Of a DNA stretch of 64,000 nucleotides, positions 11,931 through 63,820 are shown one piece after another. The stretch is from Mobula hypostoma (taxonomy: Eukaryota), in contig NC_086108.1 in assembly GCF_963921235.1 (NCBI RefSeq), positions 12,152,001 to 12,216,000 of the forward strand, given 5' to 3'. Both the position numbers and the translations under genes were made by a program. Under the pieces are notes generated by a model, which had not been told where the DNA came from, searched no databases, and was given only the letters and a program-made list of their open reading frames with translations. Position 1 is the first letter of the stretch. Every line of letters begins with the position of its first letter.

Positions 11931-12319
11931 ATTTATGACATTTGTATCATGTGTATGTATGCCTATGATAACAATAAACATGAAGAATCCAATTGAATTC
12001 TGATGTTGCTGATCCTAGGTTCTTTTGGAACTCAACAAAGACACTTAAAACTTGTGGCTTCACAATTGTTTCATTAAATGCTAATAGAACAAAGAGAATT
12101 GGAAATGGAATAATGAGAGGCAAATAGCTAAGAATAAGGAACAGTATAAAATGGCAGAGCAATTTGCTCAGCCCTTCTTATACCATAGATAAGAGATATT
12201 CCATCCAAATTTGTAGGTAAGAGTTAACCAATCAGAAAGCCCCTATTCAAATAATGTTTTACCGAAGAAGCTTCCAGAATGATACAAAGAATTATAACCT
12301 CTAGAGTACAAGCTGAACA

Positions 12320-12600
12320 ATGTACATACAGCGACCACTAGGGGAGACACTGAACAATTGCACATACAAGCTGTGACCACTAGGGGACACACTGAACAAT
12401 TGCACATACAAGCTGTGACCACTAGGGGACACACTGAACAATTGCACATACAAGCTGTGACCACTAGGGGACACACTGAACAACTGCACATACAAGCTGT
12501 GACCACTAGGGGACACACTGAACAATTGCATACACAAGCTGTGACCACTAGGGGACACACTGAATGATTGCACATACACAATGTGACCACTAGGGGACAC
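12320..12600. repeat. 42-bp minisatellite, ~6.5 copies (gctgtgaccactaggggacacactgaacaattgcacatacaa)
   Basis: Direct reading, and the 14-aa periodicity of the overlapping ORFs. Confidence 0.97.
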
Positions 12601-17859: not shown

Positions 17860-18830
17860 CAGGGACGTCTGGGTGGCCAAACACTTTCATTCTGATTCCC
17901 ATTCCTGTTCCAGTGTGTTGGTCCATGGCCTTGGCTTGTGTCAATATCCACACTCAGGTGGAACAGCAACATCTTATATTCTGTATGGGTAGCCTCCAAC
18001 CTGACAGCATCAACATTGACTTCTCCTCCCGATGAACAAATTCTCCCCAACCTTCCTCTATTCCCCACTCTGACTTTTTACTTCTTCTCACCTGCCTATT
18101 ATTTCCCCCTGGGACCCCTCCTCCTTCCATTTCTCCTTTGGTCCATTCTGGTCTCCAGTCAGATTCTTTCTTCTCCAGCCCTTGACCTTTCCCACCCTCC
18201 TGGCTTCTATCACAACCACAGATTCGGCAGCACAGATTTGGCAATTGCGCTCATGAATATTCATGTGTCAGTTAATTATTATTTCATTGTGATAGCATTT
18301 AACTCCATTCATTCCGTCGTAGTACTTGTCAAGACTTGGACACAGCAACGTTTCACTGCCTGCTTGCATTCTGCCTTGCCTGAGAAAATGGACTGTTGAT
18401 TCAACTGACTCTGAAGACTAGTGGCATTGGTGTTATTCTTAGTTGTTCTTTTCAGCCGTAGTGTAGGCTTCGTTTTCCATTTGAGAGTTTTAGTTAATGG
18501 CCCTGTTTGGCCTAGCGTTTATTGTTTTCTTTTCGCTTTAACACTGTTCACATTAAAGTCTGTGAACTATCGACCTGCTTCAGTGTCTCTCACGCCATGC
18601 CATATCCGAACCTGTTGATGGCTTCACCTATCACCTTCTAGATATCCTTCTTCCCACCTCTCCCACCTTTTTATTCTGGCATCTTCCCCCTTCTTTCCCA
18701 GTCCGGAAGAAGGGACTTGTCTCAAAATATCGACTGTCTATTCATTTCCATAGATGCTTCCTGACCTGCTGAGTTACTCCACCATTTTCTGTGCGTTGCT
18801 TTGGATTTCCAGCACCTGCAATCTCTCATG
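17860..18830 (+). mobile_element. Penelope-like element 3' fragment with a degenerate hammerhead motif (18699-18736), interrupted at 18208-18620
   Basis: LRVEQQHLIFCMGSLQPDSINIDFS, then a pyrimidine-rich UTR and cagtc-cggaaga-...-aaaatatc-gactg. Same family as 11240-11930. Confidence 0.85.
18208..18620 (+). mobile_element. Solo-LTR-like insertion (~410 bp)
   Basis: Flanked by (tg)gcttc duplicated at 18201-18207 and 18619-18625. Starts tatcac (near TGTCAC) and has attaaa near its 3' end. Confidence 0.6.
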
Positions 18831-25334: not shown

Positions 25335-25740
25335 ATCCTAACTGAGAGATACATATCCTAACCAAGAGATTGAAACCCTAACCGAGAGATCCAAATCCTA
25401 ACCAAGAGATCCAAATCCTATCTGAGAGATCGAAATTCTAACCGAGGCATTCTAAATCCTAACTGAGAGTTTGAAATCCTAACCGAGGGATCCAAATCCT
25501 AACTGAGAGATTGTAATCCTAACCGAGAGATCCAAATCTTAACCGAGAGATCCAAATCCTAACCGAGAGATTGAAATCCTAACCGAGAGATCCAAATCCT
25601 AACCGAGAGATTGAAATCCTAACCGAGAGATCCAAATCCTAACCAAGAGATTGTAATCCTAACCGAGAGATCGAAGTGCTAACCAAGAGATTGAAATCCT
25701 AACTGAGAGATCCAAATCCTAACCGAGAGATCCAAATCCT
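25335..25740. repeat. 20-bp minisatellite, ~20 copies (aaccgagagatccaaatcct, with a ttgaaat variant)
   Basis: Direct reading. Confidence 0.97.
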
Positions 25741-25741
25741 T

Positions 25742-27862
25742 TGGAGTCCTTGTGCAGGATAAAGGTTAAACTCCAGGATGAGTCGGTGGTGAAGAAGACG
25801 AATGCAATATTGGCATTTATTTCTAGAGGTATGGAATATAAGAGCAGGGATGTGTTGTTGAGGCTCTATAAGGTATTCATGAGACCACACTTGGAGTATT
25901 GTGTGCAGTTTTTGGCTCCTTATTTCAGAAAGGATATACTGACATTGGAGAGGGTTCAGAGAAGATTCATGGGATTGATTCCAGGAATGAAAGGGTTACT
26001 GTATGAGGAAAGTTTGACAGCTCTTGAGCTGTATTCCCTGGAGTTCAGGAGAATGAGGGGGGATCTCATAGAAACATTCCGAATGTTAAAAGGCCTAAAC
26101 AGATTAGATATGGCAAAGTTATTTCCCATGGTAGGGGATTCTAGGACAAGAGGGCATGACTTCAGGATTGAAGGATGTCCATTTAGGACAGAGATGCGGA
26201 GAAATTACTTTAGTCAGAGGGTGGTAAATCTGTGGAATTTGTTGCCACGAGCGGCTGTGGAGGCCACGTCTTTGGGTGTACTTAAGGTTCTTGATTAGCC
26301 AGGGCTTCAAAGAATATGGAGAGAAGACAGGAAGAATTGGATCAGCCCATTGGGAACAAAAAAACAAAATGCTGGGGGAATACAGCAGGTAAGGCAGCAT
26401 CTGTGGTGGGAAATGGACAGCTGAAGGAATAATTGCATAGCCTGTTTGCTAAACAGGGAGAAAATTCAGAAATCAGTGGTGCAAAGGGACTTGAGAGTCC
26501 TTGTGCAAGATTTCCTAAAGGTTAATTTGCAGGTAAAGTTGGTGGTGAGGAAGGCAAGTGAAACAGTAGCATTCATTTTGAGAGGACTAGAATATAAAAG
26601 TAAAGGTGTAATGCTATGGCTTTATATGGCACTGGTGAGGCCTGATTTGGAGTATTGTGAGAAGCTTTGTGTGCATTATCTAAGAAAAGATGTGCAGGCA
26701 TTGGAGGGGGTCCAGAGGAGCTCCATGAGAATGATCAGAGGAATGAAAGGGTTAAAATACAAGGAGCTTTTGAAGACCCACTGGAGTTTAGAAGAATGAG
26801 GAGAGATCTGAATGAAATATTGAATATTGAAAGGCCTAAACAGAGTGGATGTTTCATACAGCAGGGGAGTCCTGGACTAGAAAGCACAGCCTCAGAACAG
26901 AGAGATGACCCTTTAGACCAGAGATGAGTAGTTGCTTTATGCAGATGGTGGTGAATCTGTGGAATTTGCGCAAATGTCACTCCGCTCTGTTAGAAGGGAA
27001 GGAGACAAAAAGAAGTATATTGTAGGCCAGCTAGCCTGACAACTAGCCTGAGAAGTTGTTAGAGGTTTCTGAGTACTTGGAGGCACATGATAAAATATGT
27101 CAAAGTCAGTCTGGTTTCTATAAGGGGAAATCTTGCCTGACAAATCTGTTGGAATTCTTGGAGGAAGTAACAGGCAGGATTGACAAAAGAGAATCGATGA
27201 TTTTGCTTAAATGGATTTTCAGGCCTTTGTGCTGCACATGAGGTTGTTTGATAAGATAAGCGTGCATGGTATTATAGGAAAAGTTCTAGCATGGATAGAA
27301 GATTGGCTGACTGCCAGGAGGCCAAAGTGGGGAATAAAGGGAGACTTTTCATGTTGGCTGCTGGTGATTAGTCGTATTCCGCAGGGGTTGATGTTGGATT
27401 GCTTCTTTTCACGTTATGCCTTGAATGATTTGGATGATAGAATTGATGGCGTTGTGACAAAGTTTGCAGAAAATATGAAGGGTCAAGAAGTGCTGATGAA
27501 GCAGGACTTAGTCCTTCACAAGGACAGAGACAGATTGGGAGAATAGGCTAAAAGTGGCAGATAGATTACAATGCAGGGAAGTGTACAAAGCTGCACTTTG
27601 CTAGAAGGTGTAAAGGTGTAGACTGTTTTCTATACAGAGAAAGAAAATCAGAGATCTGAGGTAAACTGGGCTTGGGAGTCCTCAAGCAGGGCTCACTAAA
27701 GGTTTACTTTCAGGTTGATTCAGTGGTAAGGAAGTCAAATAATGTTAGCAATCATTTCAGAATCAGAATCGGGTTTACTATCACCAGCGTGTGTTGTGAA
27801 ATTTGTTAACTTAGCAGCAGCAGTTCAATGCAATACATAATATAGAAGGAAAAAAAAACAAA

Positions 27863-34422: not shown

Positions 34423-35744
34423 CATCACAATGGGGTGCTGGGAACGGACCCAAATGAGAGACACAGACAATGAAGTACAAGGAACAGGACTTGACTGGAG
34501 TAGGGACATGACAGGGTACAGGCAAGGAGCAAGGACAAGAACGCAGACTTGGGCTGGGGAAAGCAGGACCAGGACTATGAACCATGGACTAGGAGACAAG
34601 GCTTGGACTCCAAACCCGAGACTGGACAAGGATCCAGAACCTGGGTCTTGCCTTGGGCTCAGACCCCAGAACCAGGCAAGGACATGACATGGCTTGAGGC
34701 TGGGGTCTTGGGTTCTTGGAGCTTGGCTGGGGGATCGTCGAGGCCTGGGTTCTTGGAGCTTGGCTGGGGGATCGTCGAGGCCTGGGTTCTTGGAGCTTGG
34801 CTGGGGGATCGTCGAGGCCTGGGTTCTTGGAGCTTGGCTGGGGGATCGTCGAGGCCTGGGTTCTTGGAGCTTGGCTGGGGGATCGTCGAGGCCTGAGTTC
34901 TTGGAGCTTGGCTGGGGAATCGTCGAGGCTTGGGTTCTCGGAGCTTGGCTGCGGGATCGTTGAGGTCTGGGTTTCTTGGAGCTCAGAGACAGACTGGGAA
35001 CATAGAGCCGGGACTTATCCTTCAACAAGCCAAGACTCATCTTTAACATGACACTAACATGAGACAGGACGAACATAAACATAGAGCTGGGACTTATTCT
35101 AAGACAAGCCGGAACTCAACTTCATCTCCACACCAAGGTGGGACAGGTACCTCCATCAGATAACGGCAGAACGGCCGGACTTAACCCATAGAGGCAAGGA
35201 CAAGACAAGACAAGACAGGACCCCCCGCAGGGCAACGGCAAAACAGCCTGACTTACCCCACAGAGGCGAGGACAAGAAGAGACAAACACCAAAGAACAAC
35301 AGACAGTTCCATCTCTGCTCCGGGGAAGCTCCAAGTCTCAGTTCAGCCAGCAACCTCAGCTGGCTACAGAAGCAGCCAAATCCCTACCTAGCTCAGAGTG
35401 GCTGGCAGCCACTCAGCTGGCCCAGGAAACAGCCGAATCCATACCACAAAGACAGCTCCAACTACCAACAGTAAGGCACCATGAAGTGATGGTTCTCTTG
35501 CACGGCCTAAAGATTCCAAGTAGCCGCTCTAGCCTTCCACCAGCAGGTTGCTCCTGGGGGACTGGCAAGATAAACCAGCAGCCCACACTCAACGCCAAGG
35601 CTACTTATATTCCAAGCCCCAAGATGGGATTCGGGTGCCTATACTTAACTCAATCAAACGAGGGACAGCTGGAAGACCCGGAGCCCTGAGTCCACGGACT
35701 GGACCATGAACCGGAATGCGGACATCATGGACCGGACCATGACA
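34423..35744 (-). mobile_element. Solo LTR (1322 bp) with a 5-bp TSD and an internal minisatellite
   Basis: Minus strand begins TGTCATGG. ctgct occurs at 34418-34422 and 35745-35749. TATA-like tataagta near 35601-35608 on the minus strand. Confidence 0.75.
34705..34985. repeat. 37-bp GC-rich minisatellite, ~7.5 copies (ggcctgggttcttggagcttggctgggggatcgtcga)
   Basis: Direct reading. Confidence 0.97.
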
Positions 35745-36228: not shown

Positions 36229-36262
<34 letters not shown>

Positions 36263-38344
36263 GGCCTGATGAAGGATCTCAGCCTGAAATGTCGACAGTT
36301 TATTCATCTCCATGGATGCTGCCTGACCTGTTGAGCTCCTCCACTGCTTTGCGTGTGTTATTAAATATGACATTATCTACATCAGTTCTGATGTTCACTC
36401 AGCTTCTTTCTCTGGTTTTCCCTGTGGTCCAGCTCACTCGCTGTTTGTTGTGGGGTGGGATTGTAAGTACTTTGTCTCCTGAAAGGAATAAGCGTTTGGG
36501 GAAAGGCTCCAAAAATACTTGTAATACTGCTATCTGTTTCAGAAAAGGATCTCTTGCTGTGGCCACCATTTGACTCTGACCCAGCTTAGCCTTCAGTAAT
36601 TTAGCCACCACTTTCCTCCAGGTTCAAATCCAACAAGCCAGGGGAGACATCGGGCTCCTTGTGTTCCACATCTTGATCCAGTTAAGATTATAAACTGCTC
36701 ACTAACCTCTCTCTCACCACACAAGGTGTTGAGGTTAGGGCTAGGGTAACGTTAGGGCAAAGTTCTGCAGGCTGCATGCTTAACTTCTAAGTATACCTGT
36801 TTTGAATTACTCTCACTGCAATCCCAGTTTGTAATTCCCCTTTAAGCAATGTACTTGTTAATCAACTTAATGAACTACAGATTTCATGATCTTCTGAAGG
36901 ACTCGCCGAACTTAATTTTCAGTCAAGCAGGTACGGTACTTTTAAGTGAAGAGCATTCATCGTCACGGCTGGAGGCGAGGCATCCAAGCCAGAGGACTGA
37001 GAACCCCCCCCCCCCAACTGGAGAACAAGATTGAGAACCTGAGGACAAGATTGCTTTATCAGAGGAAAATCAGAAATTGTTGTATTCTGTGTTTTCTAAG
37101 ATATGGCTTACTTGCAGCATGCCAAATTCAGCAATCAGACCCAAATGGTTCTCCATTCACAGGATGGATTCACTGAGAATGCCCACAAGAAAACAAACCT
37201 CAGGGTTGCATATGGTGACATAGTTTGATAATAAATTTACTTTGAACTTTGAACTTTGAAAAACTCCTTGAAACAAAAGTGTCCTCTCAACAAATCTCAA
37301 GGTAACAATATCTATTTTTAAAAATTTACTTTTTGAGATATATTGCGGAATAGGCCCTTATTGCTGTGCTGCCCAGCAATCCCCCGATTTAATACTAGTC
37401 TAATCACGGAACAATTTACAAATTCCAAGTAACCTACCGATCAGTATGTCTTTGGACCGTGGGAGGAAACCAGAACACTCAGAGGAAATTCACGCATTCA
37501 GGGGGAAAATGTACAGGCAGCAGCAGGAATTGAACCCTGGTTTTCAGTACTGTAAAATGTTGTGCTAACTACTACGCTACTGTTCTGCCCCATGGCATCA
37601 CCACTTAGTGTCCTTGCATGCTTAACATAAAGCCAGTCAACCATCTCATATGCCATGGGTTAGCAAGTTATTCCATCTTCTCTTCTACCTATGTGAATGC
37701 AATGCCTTTGACTCTCAGAAGAGCTTTCAGATTTTAATTTGATCTCTCTGCAAAATTGAGGATGTGGAAGATAGTGGAAATGATGTTTATTCAAGTGAAG
37801 CTATGTCAAGATTAGCTGTTGCACCGCCCAAGCTGAACTGCATCTCGGCAACAAGATTAAAGCATCGCCTTGTGTTCTTGCTACCCTCGACTCCAACTCT
37901 GACGCCTCTGGCAGCATCTCCACAAGCTAGTAAGCAGGACTGTGAGTAAGGCTGACTGGAAATTTGTTGTCACTCTGACTGGAACTGAAAAATGGCCCTC
38001 TCTACCAAAGAAATCGCATTAGAGATGCACATCTGGCTGGGGTCAGCGCTGATTGTCCTCGGGCTCCAGGATTTGTGGAAGCAAAGCACTTTATTAAAAA
38101 AAATTCTCTTGCTCTCTGTTTCTTGTTATTGCCTCTCCTGAAGGCATGGGAGCCCCAACAGACCAGAAATACATTGCAGTAAATTGCATCAGAGAGAAGT
38201 GAGGCACTTGTTGACTTTAAGCTAATGGAGACATGCTGAAAGCAAACATATAAATTATATCTTTTATTCAGACTCACTTTAAACAAAATAAGGCTGATTA
38301 TCACAGTATATGAAATATTTTTGGTAAATATTAGAAAAATACAC

Positions 38345-38543: not shown

Positions 38544-41327
38544 GCCAGGAAAGCACAAGATCCCTGATGCCAGCAATAAGAACAAGGCAGGACTTGGGTG
38601 ATAGGGGTCTTTAATGCTGGATGCCACCTTGAAGGTGGCTCTTTGAAGATGTCCTGGATACTGCGCAGGCTAGTGCCCATGATGGAGCTGACTAAGTTTA
38701 CAACTCTCTGCAGCTTATTTCGATCCTGTGCAGTAGCACACTGGCTAGTGATGCAGTCAGATAGAATCTTCTCCATGGTACATCTGTAGAAATTTGCGAA
38801 TGTCATTCAGGCTTGTCCCAGTCCTGGTGAAGGGTGTCAGCCCAAAATGAGAACTGTTTCTTCATTTCCATTGATGCACTCTGACCTGTTGAGTTCCTCC
38901 CGCATTTTGAGTATGTTAAAGCATATTCAGGCTTTGACATCCTCTTGAGGACCACTGCCCCTACAGCCCTCCCAGAGCTCAAGCCTGCCTATTCTGACCT
39001 CTCTGTTCTCTTTGGTAGCCTTCCTTGCTGTCTATTATGCCCCCTATCTTGGTGTGATCCATAAATCTGCTGACCCAGTTTACCACATTATCATCCAGAT
39101 TGTTGATGATTGTTGAGGAATGTAGAAGATTGAGAGGAGATTTGATAGCGATATACAAAATTATGAGGGGTATAGTTAGGGTAAATGCAACCAGGCTTTT
39201 TCCGCTGAGGTTGGGTGGGACTACAACTAGGGGTCATGGTTTAAGGGGTGAAAGGTGAAAAGTTTAATGGGAACATGAGGCTATACTGCTTCACCAAGAA
39301 GGTCATGAGAATGTGGAACGAGCTGCCAGGTCAAGTGGTGCACAAGAGCTCTACTTCACCTTTTAAGAGAAGTTGGATAGTACATGGAGGTAGGGGTATG
39401 GAGGACTATGGTCCCAGTGCAAGTCGATGGGAGGAGGCAGTTTAAGTGGTTCGGAACATAAATGGACCAACGGGCATGTTTCTGTGCTGTACTTTCCTTG
39501 GACTCTATGGCTGTGGGAAGTGAGCACAGAGACCTCACCAAGCATGACAGTGCAGTAATCAGTGAGTGCAGGACTGACAGAAGAAACTGCTCTTCGATGT
39601 TGATTAAACCAAGACCTCTACTGAGGAGAAAGGGTCCCACAGCAATATCTTCAAAAGATCACGTGGATATCTCCCCTGTGTCGACCAGTGTTTCTCACTT
39701 AAGTAATGTTTCTCAGTGATGTTATCTGATAATTATCACATTGCCCTGGGAGGAATTAGCACATGCAGGCTGCAGACTATAGCTACATTACAGCAATGAC
39801 TGTGATTTGATAATGGTTGCATTGGTTGAAATGTTCCTGGGAAGGTGAGAGGTGACGTGATGGAATGCTCCCCACTTGCCTGGAGCAGTAGGGTTCCAAT
39901 AATGCTCAAGGAACTCAGTGCCATTCAGAAAGTACCCTGTTCGACTGATAGCCCAAACACCACCCTCACATTCATAAACACATCTATCTGTAAGACTTTT
40001 GCATAGTATTGTACAGAGGGAGTGGGTTGAGTACTTAGAGGTGCCTGAAAACAATGGGTTATCTCTGTGCCTAGGTTGTGAGAGGGTCGTCAAAAGGAGG
40101 GGTTTCATTCTGATGAACTCCCGCCAATTAACAGGGGATGTCAGCATCTTTCAGATGTTTTGCATGCTGCTGCCAACTGGAGCTGATGCATTTACCTGCA
40201 TTGTGCTGTAGCTAATAAAAAGCCTGTAATAGTTACATCATGTTCAAACATCCAGCTGACAAGAACACAAAACCGCTGAGTCTATAGAAGAGGAAGTTAA
40301 TCCTAGCCATGCTCTGTGTAGAATTCCTGCTGCAGTAGTGTCAGGAAGGGTGGAAGTGAGTTAGGTAGTGCTGATTGGGGATTCTTTTCAGAGTCTTCCA
40401 TTTGCATTTCCAATTCCAGGCACACCGGCAGAGATGGTCTGCATTGGAAAGTAGTTGGGAAACGGAGAACTGAAGCCAAGGAACTGGCATCTGCTGAACA
40501 CAATGCCTCCCTGCCACCCAGAGAACTGCCCTCTTGTCACAGGCATACAGGAGCAGAGCCTTTATGTTTTTATTTACTGAGAGTTACAGCACAGAAACAG
40601 CCTCTTCGGCCCATCCAGTCAATGCCTAACTATTATTCTGCCTCGTCCCATCAACCTGCACCTGGACCTTAGCTCGTGGACATTCAGCACAGTAAGAGGC
40701 CCTCTGGCCCCAGGAGTCGCACCACCCAATCACACCCATGCGCCCAATTAACCGACAAACCCATGTATCTTTGGAATGTAGGAGGAACTTGGAGCATCTG
40801 GAGGAAACCCATATGGCCACAGGGAACATGTACAAACTCGTTACAGACAGCAGCGGAACTGAACCCAGGTCAAGGGCGCTGTAATAATAATGAGTTTTTG
40901 GGCAATTCATTGAATGAATCATTCTGGAGAGAGGGATCTTTCACAGTTACAAATGAGCCAGGACTGGAGAGGGTGAATTTGGGAAAACCTATTTGGAACT
41001 TCTACCTTGGTCGCCCCAACCCAATCTCCAGCCCCTGAGACCTCTGCTCTCTTCAGGATCGTCTCCGAGTTCAACACCTCCATTTCAGGTGGCTGTGTGC
41101 CTGCTTCTGGATCCTGAGCTCTGGACACCTCAATCTTTCCATCCAACCTATAATCTGTCTCTTTGGCCACCCATCTGGTGTGCTGCCCCAGTGGTTCTGC
41201 CACAGACTTTGCTTGACAAAGTTTCTTGATGAAGACAGGGACTGTTGCCTATTAAAGGAGCTACCCAAATGTAAGTTGCTATTGTTAGATCTTGGGAGAA
41301 GCCCAGTGTCTCTGTGTTGACGATGAA

Positions 41328-43310: not shown

Positions 43311-43685
43311 TGATTTTGTTGGATGCTGTGTGATTGCCCTGCGCATTGAAGCAGTAGGTTTTGTGTTTTAAGTCAGTGCTAGTATGAATGCTGCCAGGGT
43401 GGAGTGGTGGTGTTCATCTACAGGGATTACCGGTAACTAATCCATGCATGTTGAGCGGGGTAGATATTCGTACTCCGGAAGAATTGTGAATTCACCTGTT
43501 AAGTACTGCTAGAGTTGTCGACAAAGTTGCGATTTCAGGGTGGAGGTTTGATAAAATGGAAGGTGCAGCCCTCATTTTACTACAGACTAGCGCTGACGTA
43601 GTGGCAGTGGGGCAGTTCGAATTACAGTTGAGTTTCCCATAGCTGGGGGGTGGAGATTTCAAAGGCAGGGTTCTATTGTTTCTGA

Positions 43686-43893
43686 ACACAAAATATTCTG
43701 TGGATGCTGGGGTCAAAGCACCACGCACAACATGCTAGAGGAACTCAGCAGGTCGGGCAGCATCCATGGAAATGTCTACTCAATGTTTCAGGGTAAGACC
43801 AGTCCTGATGAAGGGTCTTGGCCCGAAACATTGACTGTTCGTTTCCACGGATGCTGCCCGACCTGCTGAGTTCCTCCAGCATGTTGTGCATGT
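43686..43893. mobile_element. 208-bp fold-back Penelope-derived mini-element with a 15-bp TSD
   Basis: ttctattgtttctga at 43671-43685 and 43894-43908; long inverted arms. Confidence 0.9.
43800..43837 (+). ncRNA. Minimal type I hammerhead ribozyme motif (best copy in the window; cleavage triplet decayed)
   Basis: cagtc-CTGATGA-a-gggt/cttg/gccc-GAAA-catt-gactg: stem I cagtc/gactg, stem II, and an intact core. Confidence 0.75.
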
Positions 43894-44096
43894 TTCTATT
43901 GTTTCTGAGAAGTGAGGGGTATGAGTGGTCAGATTTGGAATGTCCAATTAGTCCCTATCCCCCAGGGAAGTGTGAGAATTCTGAGTTAGCATCCACCCTT
44001 ACCTCTCTGGTGAATAAATGGAAAAATACCCAGGTCCAAAGTCCCGGTTATGGTAGGCTCTGCCTGTTCTCTGGAATAATGCCTACCCCTAAAGGG

Positions 44097-44320
44097 CACG
44101 TGGCCAAGTGGTTCAGGCATTCGTCTAGTGACCTGAAGGTCGCTAGTTTGAGCCTAGCTGTGGCAGCGTGTTTGTGTCCTTGAGCAAGGCACTTAATCAC
44201 ACATTGCTCTAGTGTCTGTGTGAGGAGTGGCGCCCCACACAGACTTCTAATCTGCACCTTGTAAGGGATGAAAATGCCCAACGCAGGCCTCTCATGGTCT
44301 GAATTGATGTTCCCCCCCCC
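44097..44320 (+). mobile_element. tRNA-derived CORE-SINE inserted in gag
   Basis: Same head and CORE as the copy at 14618. aaaggg at 44091-44096 and 44327-44332; gag reads through when the SINE is removed. Confidence 0.88.
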
Positions 44321-44752: not shown

Positions 44753-47700
44753 TTGTATCGCATCCACCTCCACCACTGTTGCCGGCAGCCCATTCCACAC
44801 ACTCACCTGAACTGTGCCCTTAAGCCATTTCAGCCCTGGGAAAAGGTCTCTGACTAGCCACGAGATCAATGCCTCTCATCATCTTATACACCTCTATCAG
44901 GTCACCTCTCATCCTCCGCTGCTCCAAGGAGAAAAGGCCGAGTTCACTCAACCTATTCTCATAAGGCATGCTCCCCAATCCAGGTAACATCCTTGTAGAT
45001 CTCCCCTGCACCCTTTCTATAGTTTCCACATCCTTCCTGTACCGAAGTGACCAGAAATGAGCACAGTACTCCAAGTGGGGTCTGACCAGGGGCCTATATA
45101 GCTGTAACATTGCCTCTCGAGTCCTAAATTCAATTCCATGATTGATGAAGGCGAATGCACCGTATGCTTTCTTGACCACAAATTCAACCTGCGCAGCAGC
45201 TTTGAGTGTCTTATGGACTCGGACCCCAAGATTCCTCTGATCCTCCACACTACTAAGAGTCTTACCATTACTACTATATCCTGTCATCATATTTGACCTA
45301 CCAAAATGAACCACCTCGCATTTATCTGGGTTGAACTCCATCTGCCACTTCGCAGTCCAGTTTTGCATCCTATCAATATCCCAACATAAACTTTGACAGC
45401 CCTCCACACTATCCACAGTACCCCCAACCTTTGTGTCATCAGCAAACTTACTAACCCATCCCTCCACTTCCTCATCCAAGTCATTTATAAAAATCATGAA
45501 GAGAAGGGGTCCCAGAACAGCTCCCTGAGGCACACCACTGGTCACTGACCTCCATGCAGAATATGACTCGTCTACAATCACTCTACCTTCTGTGAGCAAG
45601 CCAGTTCTGGATCCACAAAGCAAGGTCACTTTGGATCTCATGCCTCCTTACTTTCTCAATATGCTCTGCATGGGTACCTTATCAAATGCCTTGCTGAAAT
45701 CCATATCCACTACATCTACTGCTCTATCTTCATCAATGTGTTTAGTCACATCCTCAAAAAATTCCATCAGTCTCATGAGGCATGACCTGCCTTTGACAAA
45801 ACCATGCTGACTATTTCTAATCATATTATGCCTCGCCACATGTTCATAAGTTCTACCTCTCAGGATCTTCTCCATCAACCTACCAATCACTGAAGTAAGA
45901 CAGATTGGAAGACAGCAAATATCCCGCCACTGTTTTAAAAAGGATGTAGGCAAAAGACGGGCAACTATAGGCCAGTTAGCTTAACATCTGTGGTCGAGAA
46001 AATGCTTGAAGCTGTCATTAAGGAAAAAATTGCGAAACATTTAGAAAGGAGTGGTTTCATTAAACAGACGCAGAATGGATTCAGAAAGGGCAGGTCCTGT
46101 TTGACAACCTTACTGGAGTTCTTTGAGGACATAATGAGTGCAGTGGATAGAGAGGAACAGGTGGATGCTGTATACTTGGATTTCCAGAAGGCATTTGATA
46201 AGGTGTCGCACAAGAGACTTATAAATAAGATACGGATACATGGAGTAGGAGGAAATGTATTGGCATGGATAGTGGATTAGTTAACCAATAGAAGGCAGAG
46301 AGTTGGTATAAATGGGTGTTTCTCCAGTTGGCAGTCAGTGGTGAGTGGGGTGCCACAGGGGTCAGTGCTGGGCCCGCAGCTGTTAACCATTTACACTGAC
46401 GATTTGGAAGACAGGACTGAGTGTAGTGTAGCAAAATTTGCTGATAACACCAAACCGTGTGGAAAAGCAAATTGTACAGAGGATGTGGAGAGTCTGCAGA
46501 GGAATATAGATAGGTTAAGTGAGTGGGCCAAGGTCTGGCAGATGGAATACAATGTTGGTAAATGCAAGATCATCCACTTTGGAAGGAATCATAGAAGAGC
46601 AGATTATTATTTAAATGGTGAAAGATTGCAGCATGCTGTTGTGCAGAGGGACTTGGGAGTGCTTGTTCATGAATCACAAAAAGTTGGCATGCAGGTACAA
46701 CAGGTTATTAAGAAGGCAAACAGAATGTTGGCCTTCATTGCTAGAGGGATTGAATTCAAGAGCAGGGAGGGCATGCTGCAACTATACAGGGTACTGGTGA
46801 GGCCATACCTGGAGTACTGTGTGCAATTCTGGTCTCCATACTTGAGGAAGGATATACTGGCTTTGGAGGCAGTGCAGAGGAGGTTTTGGTTCCAGGGATG
46901 AAGGGGTTAACCTATGAGAAGAGATTGAGTCGCCTGGGACTATGCTCTCTCGAATTCAGAAGAATGAGAGGGGATCTACAGAAACATACAAAATTTTGAA
47001 AGGGATATATAAGATAGAAGTAGGAAAGTTGTTTCCATTGGTAGGTGAGACTAGAACTAGGGACATTGCCTCAAGACTCAGGGGAGAAGATTTAGGGCGG
47101 AGATGAGGAGAAGCAGTTTTTCCCAGAGAGTAGTGAATCTGTGGAATTCTGTGCCCAGGAAAGCAGTTGAGGCTTCCTCACTAAGTATATTTTAGAAACA
47201 GTTAGATAGGTTTTTACATAGTAAGGGAATTAAAGGTTAAGGGGAAAAGGCAGGTAGATGGAGCTGAGTTTATGGACAGATGAGCCATTATCTTATTAAA
47301 TGGCAGGGCAGACTTGATGGGCCAGATGGCTTACTCCTGCTCATAATTTTTATGTTCTTCTGTTCTAATCTCCTGGGCTATCTCTACTCCCTTTCTTGAA
47401 TGAGAGAACAACATCTGCAACCCTCCAATTCTCTGCAACCTCTCCTATCCCCATGGATGATGCAAAGATCATTGCCAGAGTTTCGGCAATCTCCTCCCTC
47501 ACCTCCCACAGTAGTCTGGGGTACATCTCATCCAGTCCCAGAGACTTAGCCAACTTGATGCTTTCCAAAAGTTCCAGCACATCCTCTTTCTTAATGTCTA
47601 TATGCTCAAGATTTTCAATCCGCTGTAAGTCATCCCTACAACTGCCAAGATCCTTTTCCGTAGTAAATACTGAAGCAAAGTATTCATTAAGTATCTCTGT

Positions 47701-48178
47701 TATCTCCTCCAGTTCCATATACATTTTTTACACTGTCACACTTGATTGGTCCTGTTCTCTCACGTCTTATCCTCTTGCTCTTCACATACTTGTAGAATGT
47801 CTTGGGGTTTTCCTTAATCCTGCTCACCAAGGCCTTTTCATGGCCCTTTCTGGCTCTCCTAATTTCATTCTTAAGCTCCTTCCTGCTAGCCTTATAATTT
47901 TCCAGATCTTTATCATTACCCAGTTTTTCGAACCTTTCATAAGCTTTTCTATTCTTCTTGACTAGATTTTTATCAGCCTTTGTACACCATGGTTCCTGTA
48001 CCTTACCATCCTTTCCCTGTTTCATTGGAACATACCTATGCAGAATGCCACACAAATATCCCCTGAACATTTCCCACATTTCTGCCGTACATTTCCCTGA
48101 GGAGATCTGTTCCCAATTTATGCTTCCAAATTCCTGACTGATAGCTTCATATTTTCCCTTACTCCAATTAAATGTTTT
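44753..48178 (-). mobile_element. CR1 ORF2 fragment (44753-45901 plus 47366-48178), same subfamily as 21002-24910
   Basis: ORFs 44820-45641, 45648-45953, 47365-47724 and part of 47687-48472. Confidence 0.92.
45902..47365 (+). mobile_element. 5'-truncated CR1 nested in the minus-strand CR1
   Basis: ORFs 45990-46280 and 46338-46901; 3' hairpin and tatgttct tail at ~47305-47365. Confidence 0.92.
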
Positions 48179-50657
48179 CAGGAGTTTGATGTGGGTTGTT
48201 CCAAGAGCACTCGTCACACCATCCGGGTGACCAAGTACACCCCATTCAGAGAGAGGTCGCGGAGACTGGCCCCTGCAGAAGTGGAAGTCGCTCAGGAGCA
48301 GTTGTGTAAGTCGAAGGAAGCTGGGATCGTCACCAAGTCCCGAAGCCTCTATGCGTCTCCAATAATAGTGGCCAGAAAGAAGAACGGGAAAGTACGCATG
48401 TGTGTGGACTATATGACTTTGACAGGCGTACTGTCCCTGATCAGTATATGCTCCCAAGGATCGAAGACGCACTGGCCTGTCTGAGTGCTGTGAAGTGCTT
48501 CAGTGTGCTTGACTTGAGGAGTGGATAATACCAGATCCCCATGAGTGAGGCTGACAAAGAGAAGACGGCATTTATATGTCCCCTGGGATTCTCCCAGTTC
48601 AAATGGATGCCCCAGAGCATATCGGGAGCCCCTGCAACTTTGCAGCGGGTCATGGAGAAGACGATGGGGGATATGAACTTGCTTGAGGTATTGGTGTATC
48701 TGGATGACATCATAGTCTTTGAGTCCACCTTGGAAGAACATGAAACGAGGCTACTGAAGGTGCTGGGCTGCCTGAAAGTTGAAGGGTTAAAACTTTCCCT
48801 GGACAAGTGCCAGTTCTGCCAAACATCTGTTAGCTATGTTGGACACATAGTCTCACGGAATGGAATAGCTACAGATCCAGCTAAGATAGAGGTGGAGACC
48901 ACCTGGCCAAGGTCCCAGACTGTGAGCGCTCTGCGCTCGTTCCTTGGGTTCTGTGGTTACTATCGGAGGTTCATGAACAGGGCTACACGAAAGTAAGTCA
49001 CCCTTTAAATCAGCTTCTTAGTGGTTTCTCTCCCTTAGGGAAGAAAGGGATTGGGAAAAAGAAGAGGAGGGTAAAGAGTATCTCAGCCCATTGGAGCCCT
49101 TTGGACCAAGGTGGAATGTGAAATGTGAAGAGACTTTTCAGTCGCTGAAGCAGCTGCTGACCCAGGCGCCAGTGCTGGCTTTTGCAGACCCCTGCTTGCT
49201 GTATGTACTGCAAATGGATGCCAGCCGAGAGGGCTTAGGGGAGTCCTGTATCAGGATCAGGGCACCGAGGTGAGACCTGTTGCGATTGTCAGCCAGAATC
49301 TGTCACCCTCGGAGAAAAACTATCTCACACACAAGTTCGAGTTTCTGGCGTTGAAATGGGCGGTGGTAGATAAGCTGAGTGACTACCTCTACGGGGCCAA
49401 GTTTGAGGTGAGGACAGACAACAGTACTCTAACTTATATCCTGACCTCGGTGAAATTGGGTGCCACAGGCCATCGGTGGTTGGCAGTGATGTCTGCCTAT
49501 GATTTCAGCCTGAAGTACCAGGGGCTAGACAGAGGCGAAGAGTGGGAGAGCATTCCTGCCCCGGGGGTAAAGGAGGGGCAGGATTGGGAGGTGGATCAAT
49601 TAGGAGTTTCTGATGACGCCATTCCACAAGTTGTCTGTAGCCTGACTGCTCTGAAGACAAGTCAGTAGCCAGAATTGAGTTCTGGGGAAGTGGCAGCTGC
49701 TCAGCGAGATGACCAGGGCATCGGTACCATTTGGTCAGCGGTTAAAAAGGGAGACCTAGCTCAGGTGGAGAAGACAAAACACGTCGCGGTGCCTTCTTTA
49801 CTGAGAGAATGGCCCCAGTTAGAGTTGCAGAACCAGATCTCATACCGGGTCACCTCACCTCCAGACCGACCTCGGCATTTCCAGCTGGTTCTGCTGGAGA
49901 AGTATCAGAGGATTGTTTTGAAGTCACTTCATGATGATTTTGGACGTCTGGGGGTTGAAAAGATCTATAGATTGCTCAGAGACTGGTTTTACTGTCCCCC
50001 GATGAAATCGGAGGTCAAAGAATACTGCAAGTCATGCATTTGATGCATAAGGCGGAAGATGCTCCCTATGCGGGAAGCTCCTTTGTCCCACTTTCAGAGT
50101 GCGGTGCCCCTGGACCTGGTGTGTATGGATTTCCTGGTAACAGAACCCGATGCCAGCAACACAGCAAATGTCTTAGTCATCATGGACCACTATAGCAGAT
50201 ATGCGCAGGGGCTTTTCCTACCATGAACCAGAGGGCATCTACAGTGGCAAAAGTGTTATGGGAGAAGTACTTCATTTATTATGGCCTTCCCAGGTGAATA
50301 CATAGTGATCAGGGACAGGATTTCGAGAGCAGTCCCATCCATGAGTTACTGGGCATGCTTGGAATCGAGAAGTTGAGGACAACACCCTATCACCCACAGG
50401 GTGATCCCCAGCCCGAGAGGTTTAATTGGACCTTGCTAGACATGCTCAGGACCCTGGAGATCAGCAAGAAGAGCAAGTGAAGTCAGCATATTGGGCATCT
50501 GGTTCACTGTTACAACCGTGCACGAAATGAAGCTACTGGGTACTCGTCATATTATTTGATATTTGGGCGTGAGGCAATGTTGCCCATTGACCTTTGTTTT
50601 GGGACTGACGAGAGTGACTTACCCCCGAAGACTTATCTGAAGCATGTGTCTAACATG

Positions 50658-52165
50658 GGGAAAATGCTAGAGTCAGTTATCAAAGATGTGATAACAGCAC
50701 ATTTGGAAAGCAGTGAAATCATCGGACAAAGTCAGCATGGATTTATGAAAGGAAAATCGTGTCTGACAAATCTCATAGAATTTTTTGAGAACGTAACTAG
50801 TAGAGTGGATAGGGGAGAACCAGTGGATGTGGTATATTTGGATTTTCAGAAGGCTTTTGACAAAGTGCCACACATGAGGCTACTTAACAAGATAAGAGCC
50901 CATGGAATTACAGGAAAGTTACATACGTGAATAGAGCGTTGGCTGATTGGCAGGAAACAGAGAGTGGGAATAAAGGGATCCTATTCTGGTTGGCTGCCGG
51001 TTACCAGTGGTTTTCCACAGGGATCAGTGTTGGGGCCGAGACTTTTTACATTGTACATCAACGATTTGGATTATGGAATAGATGGCTTTGTGGCTAAGTT
51101 TGCTGACGATACGAAGATAGGTGGAGGGGCCGGTAGTGCTGAGGAAACGGAGAGTCTGCAGAGAGACTTGGATGGATTGGAAGAATGGGCAGAGAAGTGG
51201 CAAATGAAATACAAATGTTGGAAAGTGTATGGTTATGCACTTTGGCAGAAAAAATAAACGGGCAGACTATTATTTAAATGGGGAAAGAATTCAAAGTTCT
51301 GAGATGCAACAGGACTTGGGAGTCCTCGTACAGGATACCCTTAAAGTTAACCTCCAGGTTGAGTCAGTAGTGAAGAAGGCGAATGCAATGTTGGCATTCA
51401 TTTCTAGAGGAATAGAGTATAGGAGCAGGGATGTGATGTTGAGGATCTGTAAGGCGCTGGTGAGACCTCATTTGGAGTACTGTGGGCAGTTTTGGTCTCC
51501 ATATTTAAGAAAGAATGTGCTGACGTTGGAGAGGGTACAGAGAAGATTCACTAGAATGATTCCGGGAATGAGAGGGTTAATATATGAGGAACGTTTGTCT
51601 GCTCTTGGACTGTATTCCTCGGAGTTTAGAAGAATGAGGGGAGACCTCATAGAAACATTTCGAATGTTAAAAGGCATTGACAGAGTGGATGTGGCAAAGT
51701 TGTTTCCCATGATGGGGGAGTCTAGTACAAGAGGGCATGACTTAAGGATTGAAGGGTGCCCATTCAGAACAGAAATGCGAAGAATTTTTTTTAGTCAGAG
51801 GGTGGTGAATCTATGGAATTTGTTGTGGAGGCCAAGTCATTGGATGTATTTAAGGCAAAGATTGAAAGGTATCTGAGTAGCCAGGACATCAAAGGTTATG
51901 GTGAGAAGGCGGGGGAGTGGGACTAAATAGGAGAAAATGGATCAGCTCATGATAAAATGTCGGAGCAGACTCGATGGGCTGAATGGCCTACTTCTGCTCC
52001 TTTATCTTATGGTCTTATGGTCTTATGGTCTTATGGATCTGGGGTATGGAGAGAAGGCAGGTACAGGGTTCTGAATTGGATGATCAGCCATGATCATACT
52101 GAATGGTGGTGCAGGCTCGAAGGGCTGAATGGCCTACTCCTGCACCTATTTTCTATGTTTCTATG
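50658..52165 (+). mobile_element. CR1 insertion in the integrase, carrying two successive 3' ends
   Basis: ATG duplicated at 50655-50657 and 52163-52165. A (TCTTATGG)n tail ends near 52037 and a (TTTCTATG)n tail ends at 52165. Confidence 0.9.
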
Positions 52166-56313: not shown

Positions 56314-57289
56314 GTTGATGAGCACAGCCAAGCATTTTTCAGCCTCTTCAAAAAGAGGCAATGGTGAGCTATCCTGATTGTGGAAGCTGTGTAAGGGGAC
56401 CATGAGAGGCTGTGTGCATTCTCAGGAGTTTGAAGCTGCTCACGGTTCACACTGTTGAGCCACAGACAACATGAAGGATGTGCACAATAGACTTTTCAAT
56501 ACTCCAAAGACCTTCTCAAGGTCAGATGAAAAACACATGTAACAGCATTACCAGCTAATGGATTTGAAACCCCTTGATCACTTAAATTGAGGACAAAACA
56601 CAAGGGAAGGAGCTGACTGCTTGAAATATCTCTGACAGAAACACGCAGGGGTCATCACAAACAGTAGAAGGAGTGTGCAATATCTTAAAGCACACACCCA
56701 GCACCCTGTCTGCACCACCCACTCCAGCTGAGACAGAGACTGCAATTCCTTCACTAGCCCGATCCCTCACTTCAGCACCGATCTCAGAGAGGATACAAGC
56801 CCCAGATTCCAAGATGAGAAATTCTACAGATGCTGGAAATCCAAAGCAGCACACATAAAATGCTGGAGGAATTCAGCAGGGCAAGCAACATCTATGGAAA
56901 AGAGTGAACAGATGATAAGGAAAAGGAGAAGTCAGAGTAAGGTGGGGAGAGGGGAGGGAGAAGTACAAAGTGACAAGTGATAAGACTTCCTCCAGTATTT
57001 TGTATCTGCTGCCCCAGATCCCAAGAAATGGCCTGAGAAGAAAATACAATTTAAGAGACTGTCTGGTGAGATGTACAATCTTTCTTCAAGGCTGCCAGTG
57101 ATGTACGACTGAAGGAACTGGGGGTTAAGGGTTAGTTTGATCTTTTTCAGTATGAAGATTACTTGCACAGATTCAGTCAGCAGGTAGCTGATAACAAATG
57201 TCACAAGGCAGTCATGCAGAGTGACGGCAGCAGAGATATGATACAGAGTAATGGGAGCCTTCCAGACTGACGGCAGCACCGGGTATCCC

Positions 57290-60200
57290 GGAGATTTAAC
57301 ACAGAGTGATGGGAGACGGGCAGACTGGATATCCCTGAGATATACACAGAGAGATGGGAGACGGGCAGACTGGATATCCCTGAGATATACACAGAGTGAT
57401 GGGAGATGGGCAGACTGGATATCCCTGAGATATACACACAGTGATGGGAGACGGGCAGACTGGATATCCCTGAGATATACACAGAGTGATGGGAGACGGG
57501 CAGCACTGGGTACCCCTGAGATTTAACACAGAGTGATGGGAGACGGGCAGACTGGATATCCCTGAGATATACACAGAGTGATGGGAGACGGGCAGAGTGG
57601 ATATCCCTGAGATATACACAGAGTGATGGGAGACGGGCAGACTGGATATCCCTGAGATATACACAGAGTGATGGGAGACGGGCAACACTGGGTACCCCTG
57701 AGATTTAACACAGAGTGATGGGAGACGGGCAGACTGGATATTCCTGAGATAAACACACAGTGATGGGAGATGGGCAGACTGGATATCCCTGAGATATACA
57801 CAGAGTGATGGGAGATGGGCAGACTGGATATCCCTGAGATATACACAGAGTGATGGGAGATGGGCAGACTGGATATCCCTGAGATATACACAGAGTGATG
57901 GGAGACGGGCAGACTGGATATCCCTCAGATATACACAGAGTGATGGGAGACGGGCAGATTGGATATCCCTGAGATATACACAGAGAGATGGGAGACGGGC
58001 AGACTGGATATCCCTGAGATATACACAGAGAGATGGGAGATGGGCAGACTGGATATCCCTGAGATATACACAGAGTGATGGGAGACGGGCAGACTGGATA
58101 TCCCTGAGATATACACAGAGTGATGGGAGTTGGGCAGACTGGATATTCCTGAGATATACACAGAGTGAGGGGAGACGGGCAGACTGGATATTCCTGAGAT
58201 ATACACAAAGTGATGGGAGATGCTCAGACTGGATATACCTGAGATATAGTACAGAGTGATGGGAGATGGGCAGACTGGATATCCCTGAGATTTAACACAG
58301 AGCGATGGGAGACGGGCAGACTGGATATCCTGAGATATACACAGAGTGATGGGAGACGGGCAAACTGGATATCCCTGAGATATACACAGAGTGATGGGAG
58401 ACGGGCAGACTGGATATCCCTGAGGTATACACAGAATGATGGGAGACGGGCAGACTGGATATTCCTGAGATATACACACAGTGATGGGAGACGGGCAGAC
58501 TGGATATCCCTGAGATATACACAGAGTGATGGGAGACGGGCAGACTGGATATCCTGAGATATACACAGAGTGATGGGAGACGGGCAAACTGGATATCCCT
58601 GAGATATACACAGAGTGATGGGAGACGGGCAGACTGGATATCCCTGAGGTATACACAGAATGATGGGAGACGGGCAGACTGGATATTCCTGAGATATACA
58701 CACAGTGATGGGAGACGGGCAGACTGGATATCCCTGAGATATACACAGAGTGATGGGAGACGGGCAGACTGGATATCCCTGAGATTTAACACAGAGTGAT
58801 GGGAGACGGGCAGACTGGATATCCCTGAGATATACACAGAGTGATGGGAGACGGGCAGACTTGATATTCCTGAGATATACGCAGAGTGATGGGAGACGGG
58901 CAGACTGGATATTCCTGAGATATACACAAAGTGATGGGAGGTGCTCAGACTGGATATACCTGAGATATAGTACAGAGTGATGGGAGATGGGCAGACTGGA
59001 TATCCCTGAGATATACACAGAGTGATGGGAGACGGGCAGACTGGATATCCCTGAGATATACACAGAGTGATGGGAGACGGGCAGACTGGATATCCCTGAG
59101 ATATACACAGAGTGATGGGTGACGGTATGCTGGCATTTATAGCGAGAGGATTTGAGTACAGGAGCAGGGAGGTACTACTGCAGTTGTACAAGGCCTTGGT
59201 GAGACCACACCTGGAGTATTGTGTGCAGTTTTGGTCTCCTAATCTGAGGAAAGACATCCTTGCCATAGAGGGAGTACAAAGAAGGTTCACCAGATTGATT
59301 CCTGGGATGGCAGGACTTTCATATGAAGAAAGACTGGATGAACTGGGCTTGTACTCGTTGGAATTTAGAAGATTGAGGGGGGATCTGATTGAAACGTATA
59401 AGATCCTAAACGGATTGGACAGGCTAGATGCAGGAAGATTGTCCCCGATGTTGGGGAAGTCCAGAACGAGGGGCCACAGTTTGAGAATAGAGGGGAAGCC
59501 TTTTAGGACCGAGATTAGGAAAAACTTCTTCACACAGAGAGTGGTGAATCTGTGGAATTCTCTGTCACAGGAAACAGTTGAGGCCAGTTCATTGGCTATA
59601 TTCAAGAGGGAGTTAGATATGGCCCTTGTGGCTACGGGGATCAGGGGGTATGGAGGGAAGGCTGGGGCGGGGTTCTGAGTTGGAGGATCAGCCATGATCA
59701 TAATAAATGGCGGTGCAGGCTCGAAGGGCCGAATGGCCTACTCCTGCACCTATTTTCTATGTTTCTATGTTTCTATATACACAGAGTGATGGGTGACGGG
59801 CAGACTGGATATCCCTGAGATATACACAGAGTGATGGGAGACGGGCAGACTGGATATCCCTGAGATTTAACACAGAGTGATGGGAGACGGGCAGACTAGA
59901 TATCCCTGAGATATACACAGAGTGATGGGAGAGGGGCAGACTGGATATCCCTGAGATTTAACACAGAGTGATGGGAGACGGGCAGACTGGCTATCCCTGA
60001 CATATAACACAGAGTGATGGGAGACCGGCAGACTGGATATCCTGAGGTATACACAGAGTGATGGGAGATGGGCAAACTGGATATCCCTGAGATATACACA
60101 GAGTGATGGGAGACGGCAGCACTGGGTACCCCTGAGATTTAACACAGAGTGATGGGAGACGGGCAGCCTAGATATCCCTGAGATATACACAGAGTGATGG

Positions 60201-61250
60201 GAGACGGGCAGACTGGATATTCCTGAGATATACACAGAGTGATGGGAGACGGGCGGACTGGATGTCCCTGAGGTATACACAGAGTGATGGGAGACAGGCA
60301 GACTGGATATCCCTGAGATATACATAGAGTGATGGGAGATGGGCAGACTGGATGTCCCTGAGGTATACACAGAGTGATGGGAGACAGGCAGACTGGATCT
60401 CCCTGAGATATACACAGAGTGATGGGAGACCGGCAGACTGGATATCCCTGAGATATACACAGAGTGATGGGAGACGGGCAGCCTAGATATCCCTGAGATA
60501 TACACAGAGTGATGGGAGACGGGCAGCCTAGATATCCCTGAGATATACACAGAGTGATGGGAGACGGGCAGACTGGATATTCCTGAGATATACACAGAGT
60601 GATGGGAGACGGGCAGACTGGATGTCCCTGAGGTATACACAGAGTGATGGGAGACGGGCAGACTGGATATCCCTGAGATATACATAGAGTGATGGGAGAT
60701 GGGCAGACTGGATGTCCCTGAGGTATACACAGAGTGATGGGAGACAGGCAGACTGGATATCCCTGAGGTATACACAGAGTGATGGGAGACGGGCAGACTG
60801 GATATTCCTGAGATATACATAGAGTGATGGGAGATGGGCAGACTGGATGTCCCTGAGGTATACACAGAGTGATGGGAGACAGGCAGACTGGATATCCCTG
60901 AGATATACACAGAGTGATGGGAGACGGGCAGACTGGATATCCCTGAGGTATACACAGAGTGATGGGAGACGGGCAGACTGGATATCCCTGAGATTTAACA
61001 CAGAATGATGGGAGACGGGCAGACTGGATATCCCTGAGATATACTCAGAGTGATGGGATGTGGGCAGGCTGGATTTTCCTGAGTTATACACAGAGTGATG
61101 GGAGACGGGCAGACTGGATATCCCTGAGATTTAACACAGAGTGATGGGAGACGGGCAGACTGGATATCCCTGAGATATAACACAGAGTGATGGGAGACGG
61201 GCAGACTGGATATCCCTGAGTTATAACACAGAGTGATGTCAGCACTGGAT
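57290..61250. repeat. 45-bp minisatellite, roughly 70 units (acacagagtgatgggagacgggcagactggatatccctgagatat), interrupted at 59126-59774
   Basis: Direct reading, and the 15-aa periodicity of the overlapping ORFs. Confidence 0.98.
59126..59774 (+). mobile_element. Young 5'-truncated CR1 with an intact ORF2 C-terminus and a 25-bp TSD
   Basis: Open frame to the stop at 59678, hairpin, and (TTTCTATG)n tail. TSD at 59101-59125 and 59775-59799. Confidence 0.95.
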
Positions 61251-63689: not shown

Positions 63690-63820
63690 TGCAAGAGAAT
63701 CTGCAGAATGCTGGACATGCAGAGTAACACGTGCACAATGCTGGAGGAGCTCGGCAGGTCAGGCAACATCTAGGGAGAGGAATAAACAGTCAATGTTTTG
63801 GGCCATGACCCTTCGTCAAT
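63690..63820 (-). mobile_element. Penelope-derived terminal-repeat fragment with a degenerate hammerhead motif (63787-63819); further fragments at 36261-36360(+), 38815-38915(+), 56812-57022, 26365-26425(-), 7495-7555(+)
   Basis: Shared motif gatgctgcctgacctgctgagttcctccagc downstream of the hammerhead-like core. Confidence 0.8.

Follow-up and report, generated by a model that had tools for sequence, protein, structure and literature searches.

A very large minimal hammerhead ribozyme family of likely Neptune-type Penelope-like elements in Mobula hypostoma: decayed window copies, and insertion ends that point to an uncut RNA template

Cervera and de la Pena 2014 (PMC4209133) described minimal hammerhead ribozymes (min-HHRs) in pseudo-LTRs of Penelope-like elements from metazoans and reported them as inactive as monomers and weak as dimers. 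The ribozyme of PAc (Poseidon), a Penelope-like element of Anolis carolinensis, is protein-assisted, and its reverse transcriptase (RT) primes internally on a main template of uncut RNA (Frangieh 2024, PMC11167929). Craig et al. 2021 (PMC8557442) give a CX2-5CxxC linker between RT and endonuclease as the mark of Neptune and Nematis elements and treat the role of the hammerhead in Penelope-like elements as an open question. Non-LTR retrozymes, which are non-coding, hammerhead-bearing derivatives of Penelope pseudo-LTRs, have been reported from one cartilaginous fish too (Li et al. 2026, 10.64898/2026.07.22.740005). We compared with these systems a window of 64,000 nt from Mobula hypostoma (NC_086108.1, positions 12,152,001 to 12,216,000), in which a preliminary description had read six segments of 33-38 nt as a dispersed minimal hammerhead family carried by Penelope-derived repeats. 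The analysis supports that interpretation overall and confirms that the six segments are degenerate remains of a minimal type I hammerhead, a form that lacks loop III, in the pseudo-LTR of a Penelope-like retrotransposon. The fuller reading that we favour, with moderate confidence, is that the window segments are decayed min-hammerhead copies in the pseudo-LTR of a likely Neptune element, the short copies being likely run-off cDNAs of an uncut RNA whose first base is likely the initial A of stem I.

Upon re-reading the window, all six segments were found where, and on the strands on which, they had been placed (coordinates are given with each copy below), each within a longer repeat, some 100-250 nt in length, that is common to all. 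With a profile made from 14 genomic copies, the window gave nine matches of at least 20 bits, namely the six segments, the stretch 43689-43801, which is an inverted arm, and two remnants without the ribozyme that are absent from the preliminary description, one from the pseudo-LTR of the same family (56815-56911, minus strand) and a short one from the region 3' of the cut site (26364-26407, minus strand); the same profile matched nothing in 600 kb of reversed control sequence. The bare core pattern occurred 4 times in the window against 9.1 expected, which is not above chance, none of the window copies passed a family-independent structure descriptor, and an Rfam scan of the window returned no hammerhead match at E up to 5. 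In most individual window copies the hammerhead core is broken, and 22 of the 44 lesions relative to the consensus are of CpG type (the four missing-5'-arm differences of the copy at 63787 excluded), in agreement with the earlier remark that the copies are decayed, often at CpG. The window copies are probably inert by-products that decay at about the neutral rate.

The focal copy (43800-43837, plus strand) is a minimal hammerhead relic whose core and stems I and II are intact and which has three CpG-type changes, in loop II, at position 16.2 and at H17; the 16.2 change breaks the ACGU palindrome. It begins the forward arm (43800-43893, plus strand) of a short fold-back insertion, an arm that runs from the ribozyme 5' edge to about 60 nt past the cut site. 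The adjoining inverted arm (43686-43799, minus strand) extends from inside stem II, with no CUGA box, to about +100, positions being counted from the predicted cut with 0 as the first base 3' of the GUC. Together, 43686-43893 forms a single 208-nt fold-back insertion flanked by 15-nt direct repeats (43671-43685 and 43894-43908, both plus strand), which are likely a target-site duplication. An RNA spanning both arms is predicted, by modelling, to form a long hairpin that would abolish the hammerhead fold. Elsewhere in the genome, the short inserts at loci L321, L323, L328 and L343 seem, by eye, to lie between direct repeats of some 10-13 nt, comparable to the focal 15-nt pair.

Four of the six window copies are short forms, and two are longer and follow GIY-YIG remnants, as had been noted. 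The first of the longer copies, with its decayed hammerhead at 11301-11338 (minus strand; 10 changes, C3 and U16.1 lost), is 5'-truncated, has a pseudo-LTR match at 11236-11417 and lies downstream of a frameshifted GIY-YIG endonuclease remnant (11577-11932, minus strand) in two pieces, with 58% and 69% identity to the protein of the full-length element L081 described below. The second (18699-18736, plus strand; nine changes, U4 and G12 lost; pseudo-LTR match 18621-18821) has its 3' UTR split by an unrelated stretch and follows a frameshifted C-terminal GIY-YIG remnant at 17861-18035 (plus strand). Besides the focal copy, the short solo copies are those at 36261-36298 (plus strand; seven changes), which starts at the ribozyme edge adjoining a GAT microsatellite, at 38819-38856 (plus strand; eight changes, with A6, G12, U16.1 and H17 lost) and at 63787-63819 (minus strand), which starts within the CUGA box and is without the 5' arm of stem I.

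The window also contains other repeats. A minisatellite at 57272-61238 comprises about 88 copies of a 45-nt unit, is interrupted by a LINE fragment near 59080-59740 and has long open frames that arise by repetition only; three more minisatellites (12333-12604, 25335-25740 and 34709-34983) have periods of 42, 20 and 37. LINE fragments with RT or endonuclease frames, which we take to be CR1-like, lie at 2123-3265(-), 3826-4443(-), 22567-23178(+), 44820-45647(-), 46281-46901(+), 47687-48499(-) and 51208-51876(+), and a tRNA-like stretch at 44094-44166(+), scoring 24.4 bits and under the Rfam cut-off, is probably the head of a tRNA-derived SINE.

Pfam recognised none of three short window peptides, and a search for longer homologues of one of them found none, so the Penelope link was made via the genome's own full-length copy. 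Briefly, a GIY-YIG peptide from the window, used as a genome query, gave 91,733 first-look candidates, of which 150 were scored, and 20 long-frame loci were fetched. Locus L081 holds a complete unit, consisting of a ribozyme, a 1,043-codon open frame (stop to stop) and a second ribozyme 3,519 nt on, and this RT and GIY-YIG frame between two ribozymes bears out the proposed tie to Penelope. The protein (P0001) matched Pfam RVT_1 at E=6e-5 and GIY-YIG at E=0.002, both below curated cut-offs; its nearest Atlas clusters, at 0.98, are RT/GIY-YIG families, and a solved-structure search with it returned no match. Upstream of its GIY-YIG domain lies a CX4CxxC linker, and from this motif alone, which Nematis also has, the element is likely of the Neptune clade. 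Like the Neptune EN+ elements of Craig et al. [quoted passage not shown]

The same element resembles PAc (PMC11167929) in the position of the ribozyme at the pseudo-LTR/ORF junction, in its putative uncut RNA template and in a 30-40-nt tail bounded by two RT start sites, which here would be at about +65 and +102. It differs from PAc in carrying the linker of Neptune/Nematis elements and in having its start codon outside the ribozyme: in-frame ATGs lie at +60 (variable) and +138, and the ribozyme is without a start codon. Moreover, the evidence for PAc is biochemical, whereas ours comes from genomic sequence. Within L081, a 16-codon upstream frame lies at 4520-4570, 20 nt past the cut site and out of the main frame. 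Three pseudo-LTR copies of one compound insertion (L081 2446-8085) differ by 10-18 substitutions in about 586 nt, whereas between the inverted arm and the frame identity is 99%, which hints that one event drew on different templates. Among other loci, L091 and L119 (contig C1, near 170,000 and 2,960,000) have a common unrelated upstream flank and both start at +8, suggesting duplication or a composite repeat, and L084 and L085 are near-identical and about 100 kb apart.

To estimate family size, we scanned 60 pieces, each 10 kb long and placed at round coordinates of large contigs, in the 3.48-Gb genome. The profile gave 81 matches of at least 20 bits, 66 of them spanning the ribozyme, and none in the reversed control, corresponding to about 380,000 genomic copies (roughly 295,000-475,000) and upholding the earlier estimate of a very large family at about one copy per 10 kb. 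A descriptor search, which had been proposed as a check, left the window copies unrecognised and found 12 intact motifs in the same 600 kb against 0 in each of five shuffles, or about 70,000 genome-wide. The 38-nt consensus implied by the six segments has 76 exact genomic occurrences, against 0 for the control, and coincides with the majority sequence of 85 older copies; the young motif occurs letter-perfect 29,805 times, and the core C3UGANGA9 ... G12AAA15.1 ... U16.1 H17 is exact in all 76 + 29,805 of these copies. Two variants of a downstream 40-mer occur 38,504 and 19,486 times. Given the 29,805 exact young motifs, together with full-length open frames, the description of the copies as fossils of an active master is true of the window and not of the family.

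Sorting 329 copies yielded four lineages that differ at N7, in loop II, at 11.1, at -33 and, in one lineage, at A6. Three of the four lineage majorities retain the entire core, both stems and the palindrome while the 5' flank varies between lineages. ACGU (the 15.1-16.1 palindrome) is present in all four majorities, consistent with the minimal, dimer-type design without loop III that had been recognised in the window. An extra A lies between 9 and 10.1, and the 10.1-11.1 pair is G-C in older lineages and, in the youngest lineage, G-U or, in a shifted register, A-U; of 53 sampled copies, 24 have G-C and 21 have G-U. The covariation that was to be sought in the stems did not appear: changes among the 329 copies, whose lineages are very close, were only one-sided (C-G/U-G, G-C/G-U, U-G/C-G) and none was compensatory. 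Selection on inserted copies was likewise not seen in the decay of old copies (25/296 core vs 66/555 non-core, p=0.13). A descriptor search of the fetched loci found no second hammerhead family; L303 and L306 represent a fifth lineage, which keeps the core and stems and has loop UUCG but differs in the 3' UTR and in the sequence downstream.

By these features the family is a new, very large member of the known min-HHR Penelope kind, and its motif and window copies are ordinary. It has in common with the min-HHRs of PMC4209133 the type I topology, the CUGANGA/GAAA core with one extra base after A9, a 4-5-bp stem I, the absence of loop III, palindromic 15.2/16.2, the pseudo-LTR location and a majority of dispersed single truncated motifs. 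It departs from them in the G-U at 10.1/11.1 of its youngest lineage and in a lineage with A6C, and from the schistosome min-HHR families (stem II of 7-8 bp) in a stem II of 4 bp. The roughly 70,000 descriptor-intact motifs compare with 4,000 in coelacanth and 9,000 in Xenopus in that study, with differing descriptors; no shark entry was found in one of its supplementary files. Non-LTR retrozymes (10.64898/2026.07.22.740005) are also non-coding, hammerhead-bearing derivatives, but they form tandem arrays with a ribozyme per unit, whereas in the window the copies lie scattered, as solo or fold-back inserts, and outside all 11 tandem rows. In the literature searched there was no account of this family or of a start site at the ribozyme edge, although subscription journals, repeat libraries and bioRxiv supplements may have one.

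The A6C variant offers a natural comparison. C stands at position 6 in 11 of 66 sampled copies (10/53 in the ungapped set), about a sixth, so that the lineage has roughly 60,000-70,000 copies; among the first 100 matches listed, position 6 was C in 27, G in one and T in none. Because A6C is linked to a downstream haplotype (13/16 vs 14/84) and, in L298, to a coding remnant, it was inherited from a master. In another hammerhead this change lowers Mg2+ cleavage by orders of magnitude (PMC7151607; PMC3088659). The spread of A6C suggests that insertion can do without cleavage, unless the machinery of another lineage carried it or other ions support cleavage.

Folding predictions gave stems I and II of the isolated motif pair probabilities of 0.84-0.99. 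The monomer is predicted to fold as a 12-bp rod, with its outer pair at -32 in young copies, in which core G5-G8 are paired with the palindrome and cleavage triplet; predicted energies are -10.7 kcal/mol for the rod vs -6.7 kcal/mol for the open fold, with an opening cost of 2-4 kcal/mol, and -1.7 kcal/mol for a trans ACGU duplex. Such a rod and weak trans helix, as modelled, would fit both the behaviour of min-HHRs (PMC4209133) and the protein-assisted anole ribozyme (PMC11167929). When the young-lineage sequence was extended to -47, a competing hairpin replaced both stems (predicted probabilities <0.05); among four older-type single copies this effect was predicted in one and absent in three. 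The suggested search with Rfam hammerhead models found no match in the window or in the intact copies L081, L001 and L011 (E up to 10 for the latter), and these models appear not to cover the loop-III-less form.

We hypothesize that transcription would start at A(-32), so that the RNA would open with the ribozyme, over roughly its first 36 nt, and that the element RT would prime internally at +65 or +102, as the anole enzyme does in vitro. Priming in the 3' copy would give long inserts, and priming in the 5' copy would give 100-135-nt inserts that end at the RNA start and often fold back as inverted pairs. The monomer, with no loop III and with a predicted rod that pairs core and cleavage triplet, would be unable to cleave; cleavage would need a second copy (the 4-bp ACGU helix in trans) and probably the element protein, and hence would be slow or late. 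It would strip the RNA of its 5' end and is likely not required for insertion.

Insertion ends were examined in 204 young copies, anchored 3' of the cut without ribozyme selection and all within the first 14 Mb of contig C1. Their 3' ends fell at +59 to +75 or +99 to +114, with six outliers, giving two clusters (~+65 and ~+102) about 37 nt apart. At the 5' side, plain junctions numbered 81 and inverted ones 97, and the other 26 were direct or unresolved. Between +18 and -80 there were 36 plain junctions, 12 of them at -29 to -34 (p=8e-7), a peak that was weaker in the replication set alone (3/11, p=0.025) and is flanked by a shoulder of eight plain junctions at -43 to -48 that counts against a start at -32. 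Genome-wide, we counted starts as a 33-mer preceded by two non-consensus letters, with two positions, -16 and -41, as controls: 1,298 starts lay at -32, 394 at 0, 78 at -16 and 92 at -41. Among the loci read, plain junctions made up 6/24 at -32, 1/30 at 0, 4/12 at -16 and 4/12 at -41, which normalises to 612 (239-1144), 17 (0-86), 43 and 48 plain junctions, respectively.

The RNA 5' ends expected at the cut site by the preliminary description thus left at most a weak genomic trace, the dominant insertion 5' end being the base at which stem I begins. With inverted junctions included, cut-site starts exceed controls about 3.5-fold, which counts against a purely uncut template; with this excess, and with 2/81 plain junctions exactly at 0, some cut template may exist. 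We rejected the excess as proof of cleavage, since 29 of the 30 starts read are inverted or direct junctions. Eight of the 30 are stem I fold-backs whose other arm ends at -32 and whose arms have stem I letters in common, and, read by eye, most of the inverted ones have 1-5 letters in common with the other arm. No RNA end was seen in the 24 runs surveyed, all of them contigs and most only presumed to be RNA. In four of them, depth was heaped on ribozyme and tail and loose ends lay at L081:4468-4469, but we set both aside, because they may stem from DNA or from older lineages that differ in their upstream sequence.

The strongest rival, which we nonetheless consider unlikely, at something like one chance in a handful, places no promoter at -32 and regards that end as an RT stop or fold-back, in which the rod cDNA of a longer read-through RNA snaps into a hairpin after stem I has been copied. 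In its favour, the outer pair of the predicted rod lies at -32 in young copies, 17 of 24 young -32 starts are inverted junctions, and many junctions have stem I letters in common. Plain junctions, however, need no fold-back and peak at the same place. Furthermore, stem I of the older C6 lineage (that with A6C) is Watson-Crick to -33, yet its ends remain at -32 (290 starts vs 102 at -33, about 60 of the latter expected by chance, or about 7:1 after correction; 21/30 of the -32 starts are plain junctions), which favours a transcription start over hairpin stalling. The -32 peak, in plain junctions and in the C6 lineage, is therefore better explained by a fixed RNA start than by hairpin completion. 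A cap-derived extra G was inconsistent, at 15/21 C6 plain junctions vs 1/6 young ones and 49/100 overall among the matches listed (p=0.09), which counts against a capped start at -32. A(-32) matches the initiator consensus YYANWYY in both lineages. In Drosophila Penelope, an internal initiator-type promoter lies within the pseudo-LTR (PMC2377424).

We regard as improbable, more so than hairpin stalling, the model of Cervera and de la Pena 2014 (PMC4209133), by which efficient cleavage and ligation produce circular unit RNAs as the main template and rolling reverse transcription gives partial tandems. The intact core of the dominant young lineage, the spacing of the two L081 ribozymes one unit apart and the excess of total cut-site starts over controls all agree with it, and a ligated circle would show no end at the cut site. 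A circle, though, has neither a 5' end nor a sequence context at -32, leaving the main peak unexplained; the divergence among the L081 pseudo-LTR copies beside the 99% match of the inverted arm, at this one locus, and the wide spread of the A6C lineage also speak against it. That the motif is no longer a ribozyme here and is kept only through overlap with a promoter/initiator and an RT-binding leader is highly improbable, for although no stem change is compensatory, the youngest lineage has G10.1-U11.1 in place of G-C, an A6C lineage exists and old copies decay similarly in core and non-core, three of four lineage majorities hold core, stems and palindrome against a varying 5' flank, and minimal motifs related to this one show weak cleavage, in dimers or with protein.

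Returning to run-off from an uncut RNA, we tentatively offer a joint reading that goes beyond it and that is possible though less than even: the hammerhead would be the extreme RNA 5' end and a position-dependent switch, cleavage would be dispensable, and the solo motifs, in their hundreds of thousands, would be run-off products primed beside the cap, with stem I as a second-strand fold-back primer. A motif at the 5' end would be free to fold and, helped by protein or a partner, to take off the cap. In young-lineage elements, the motif of the 3' copy would be turned off by pairing of its core with the 15 nt upstream of it, sparing the downstream RT priming sites; stem probabilities in this copy are predicted to drop from about 0.6-0.9 to <0.05 when these nucleotides are included. 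The family in this genome is very young and very large and offers insertion ends in their thousands for counting. These counts suggest that the template in vivo is uncut RNA, in line with the one in vitro study, and they yield exact predictions, namely a capped start 32 nt upstream of the cut and an upstream anti-core hairpin, for which the natural A6C lineage provides a built-in control.
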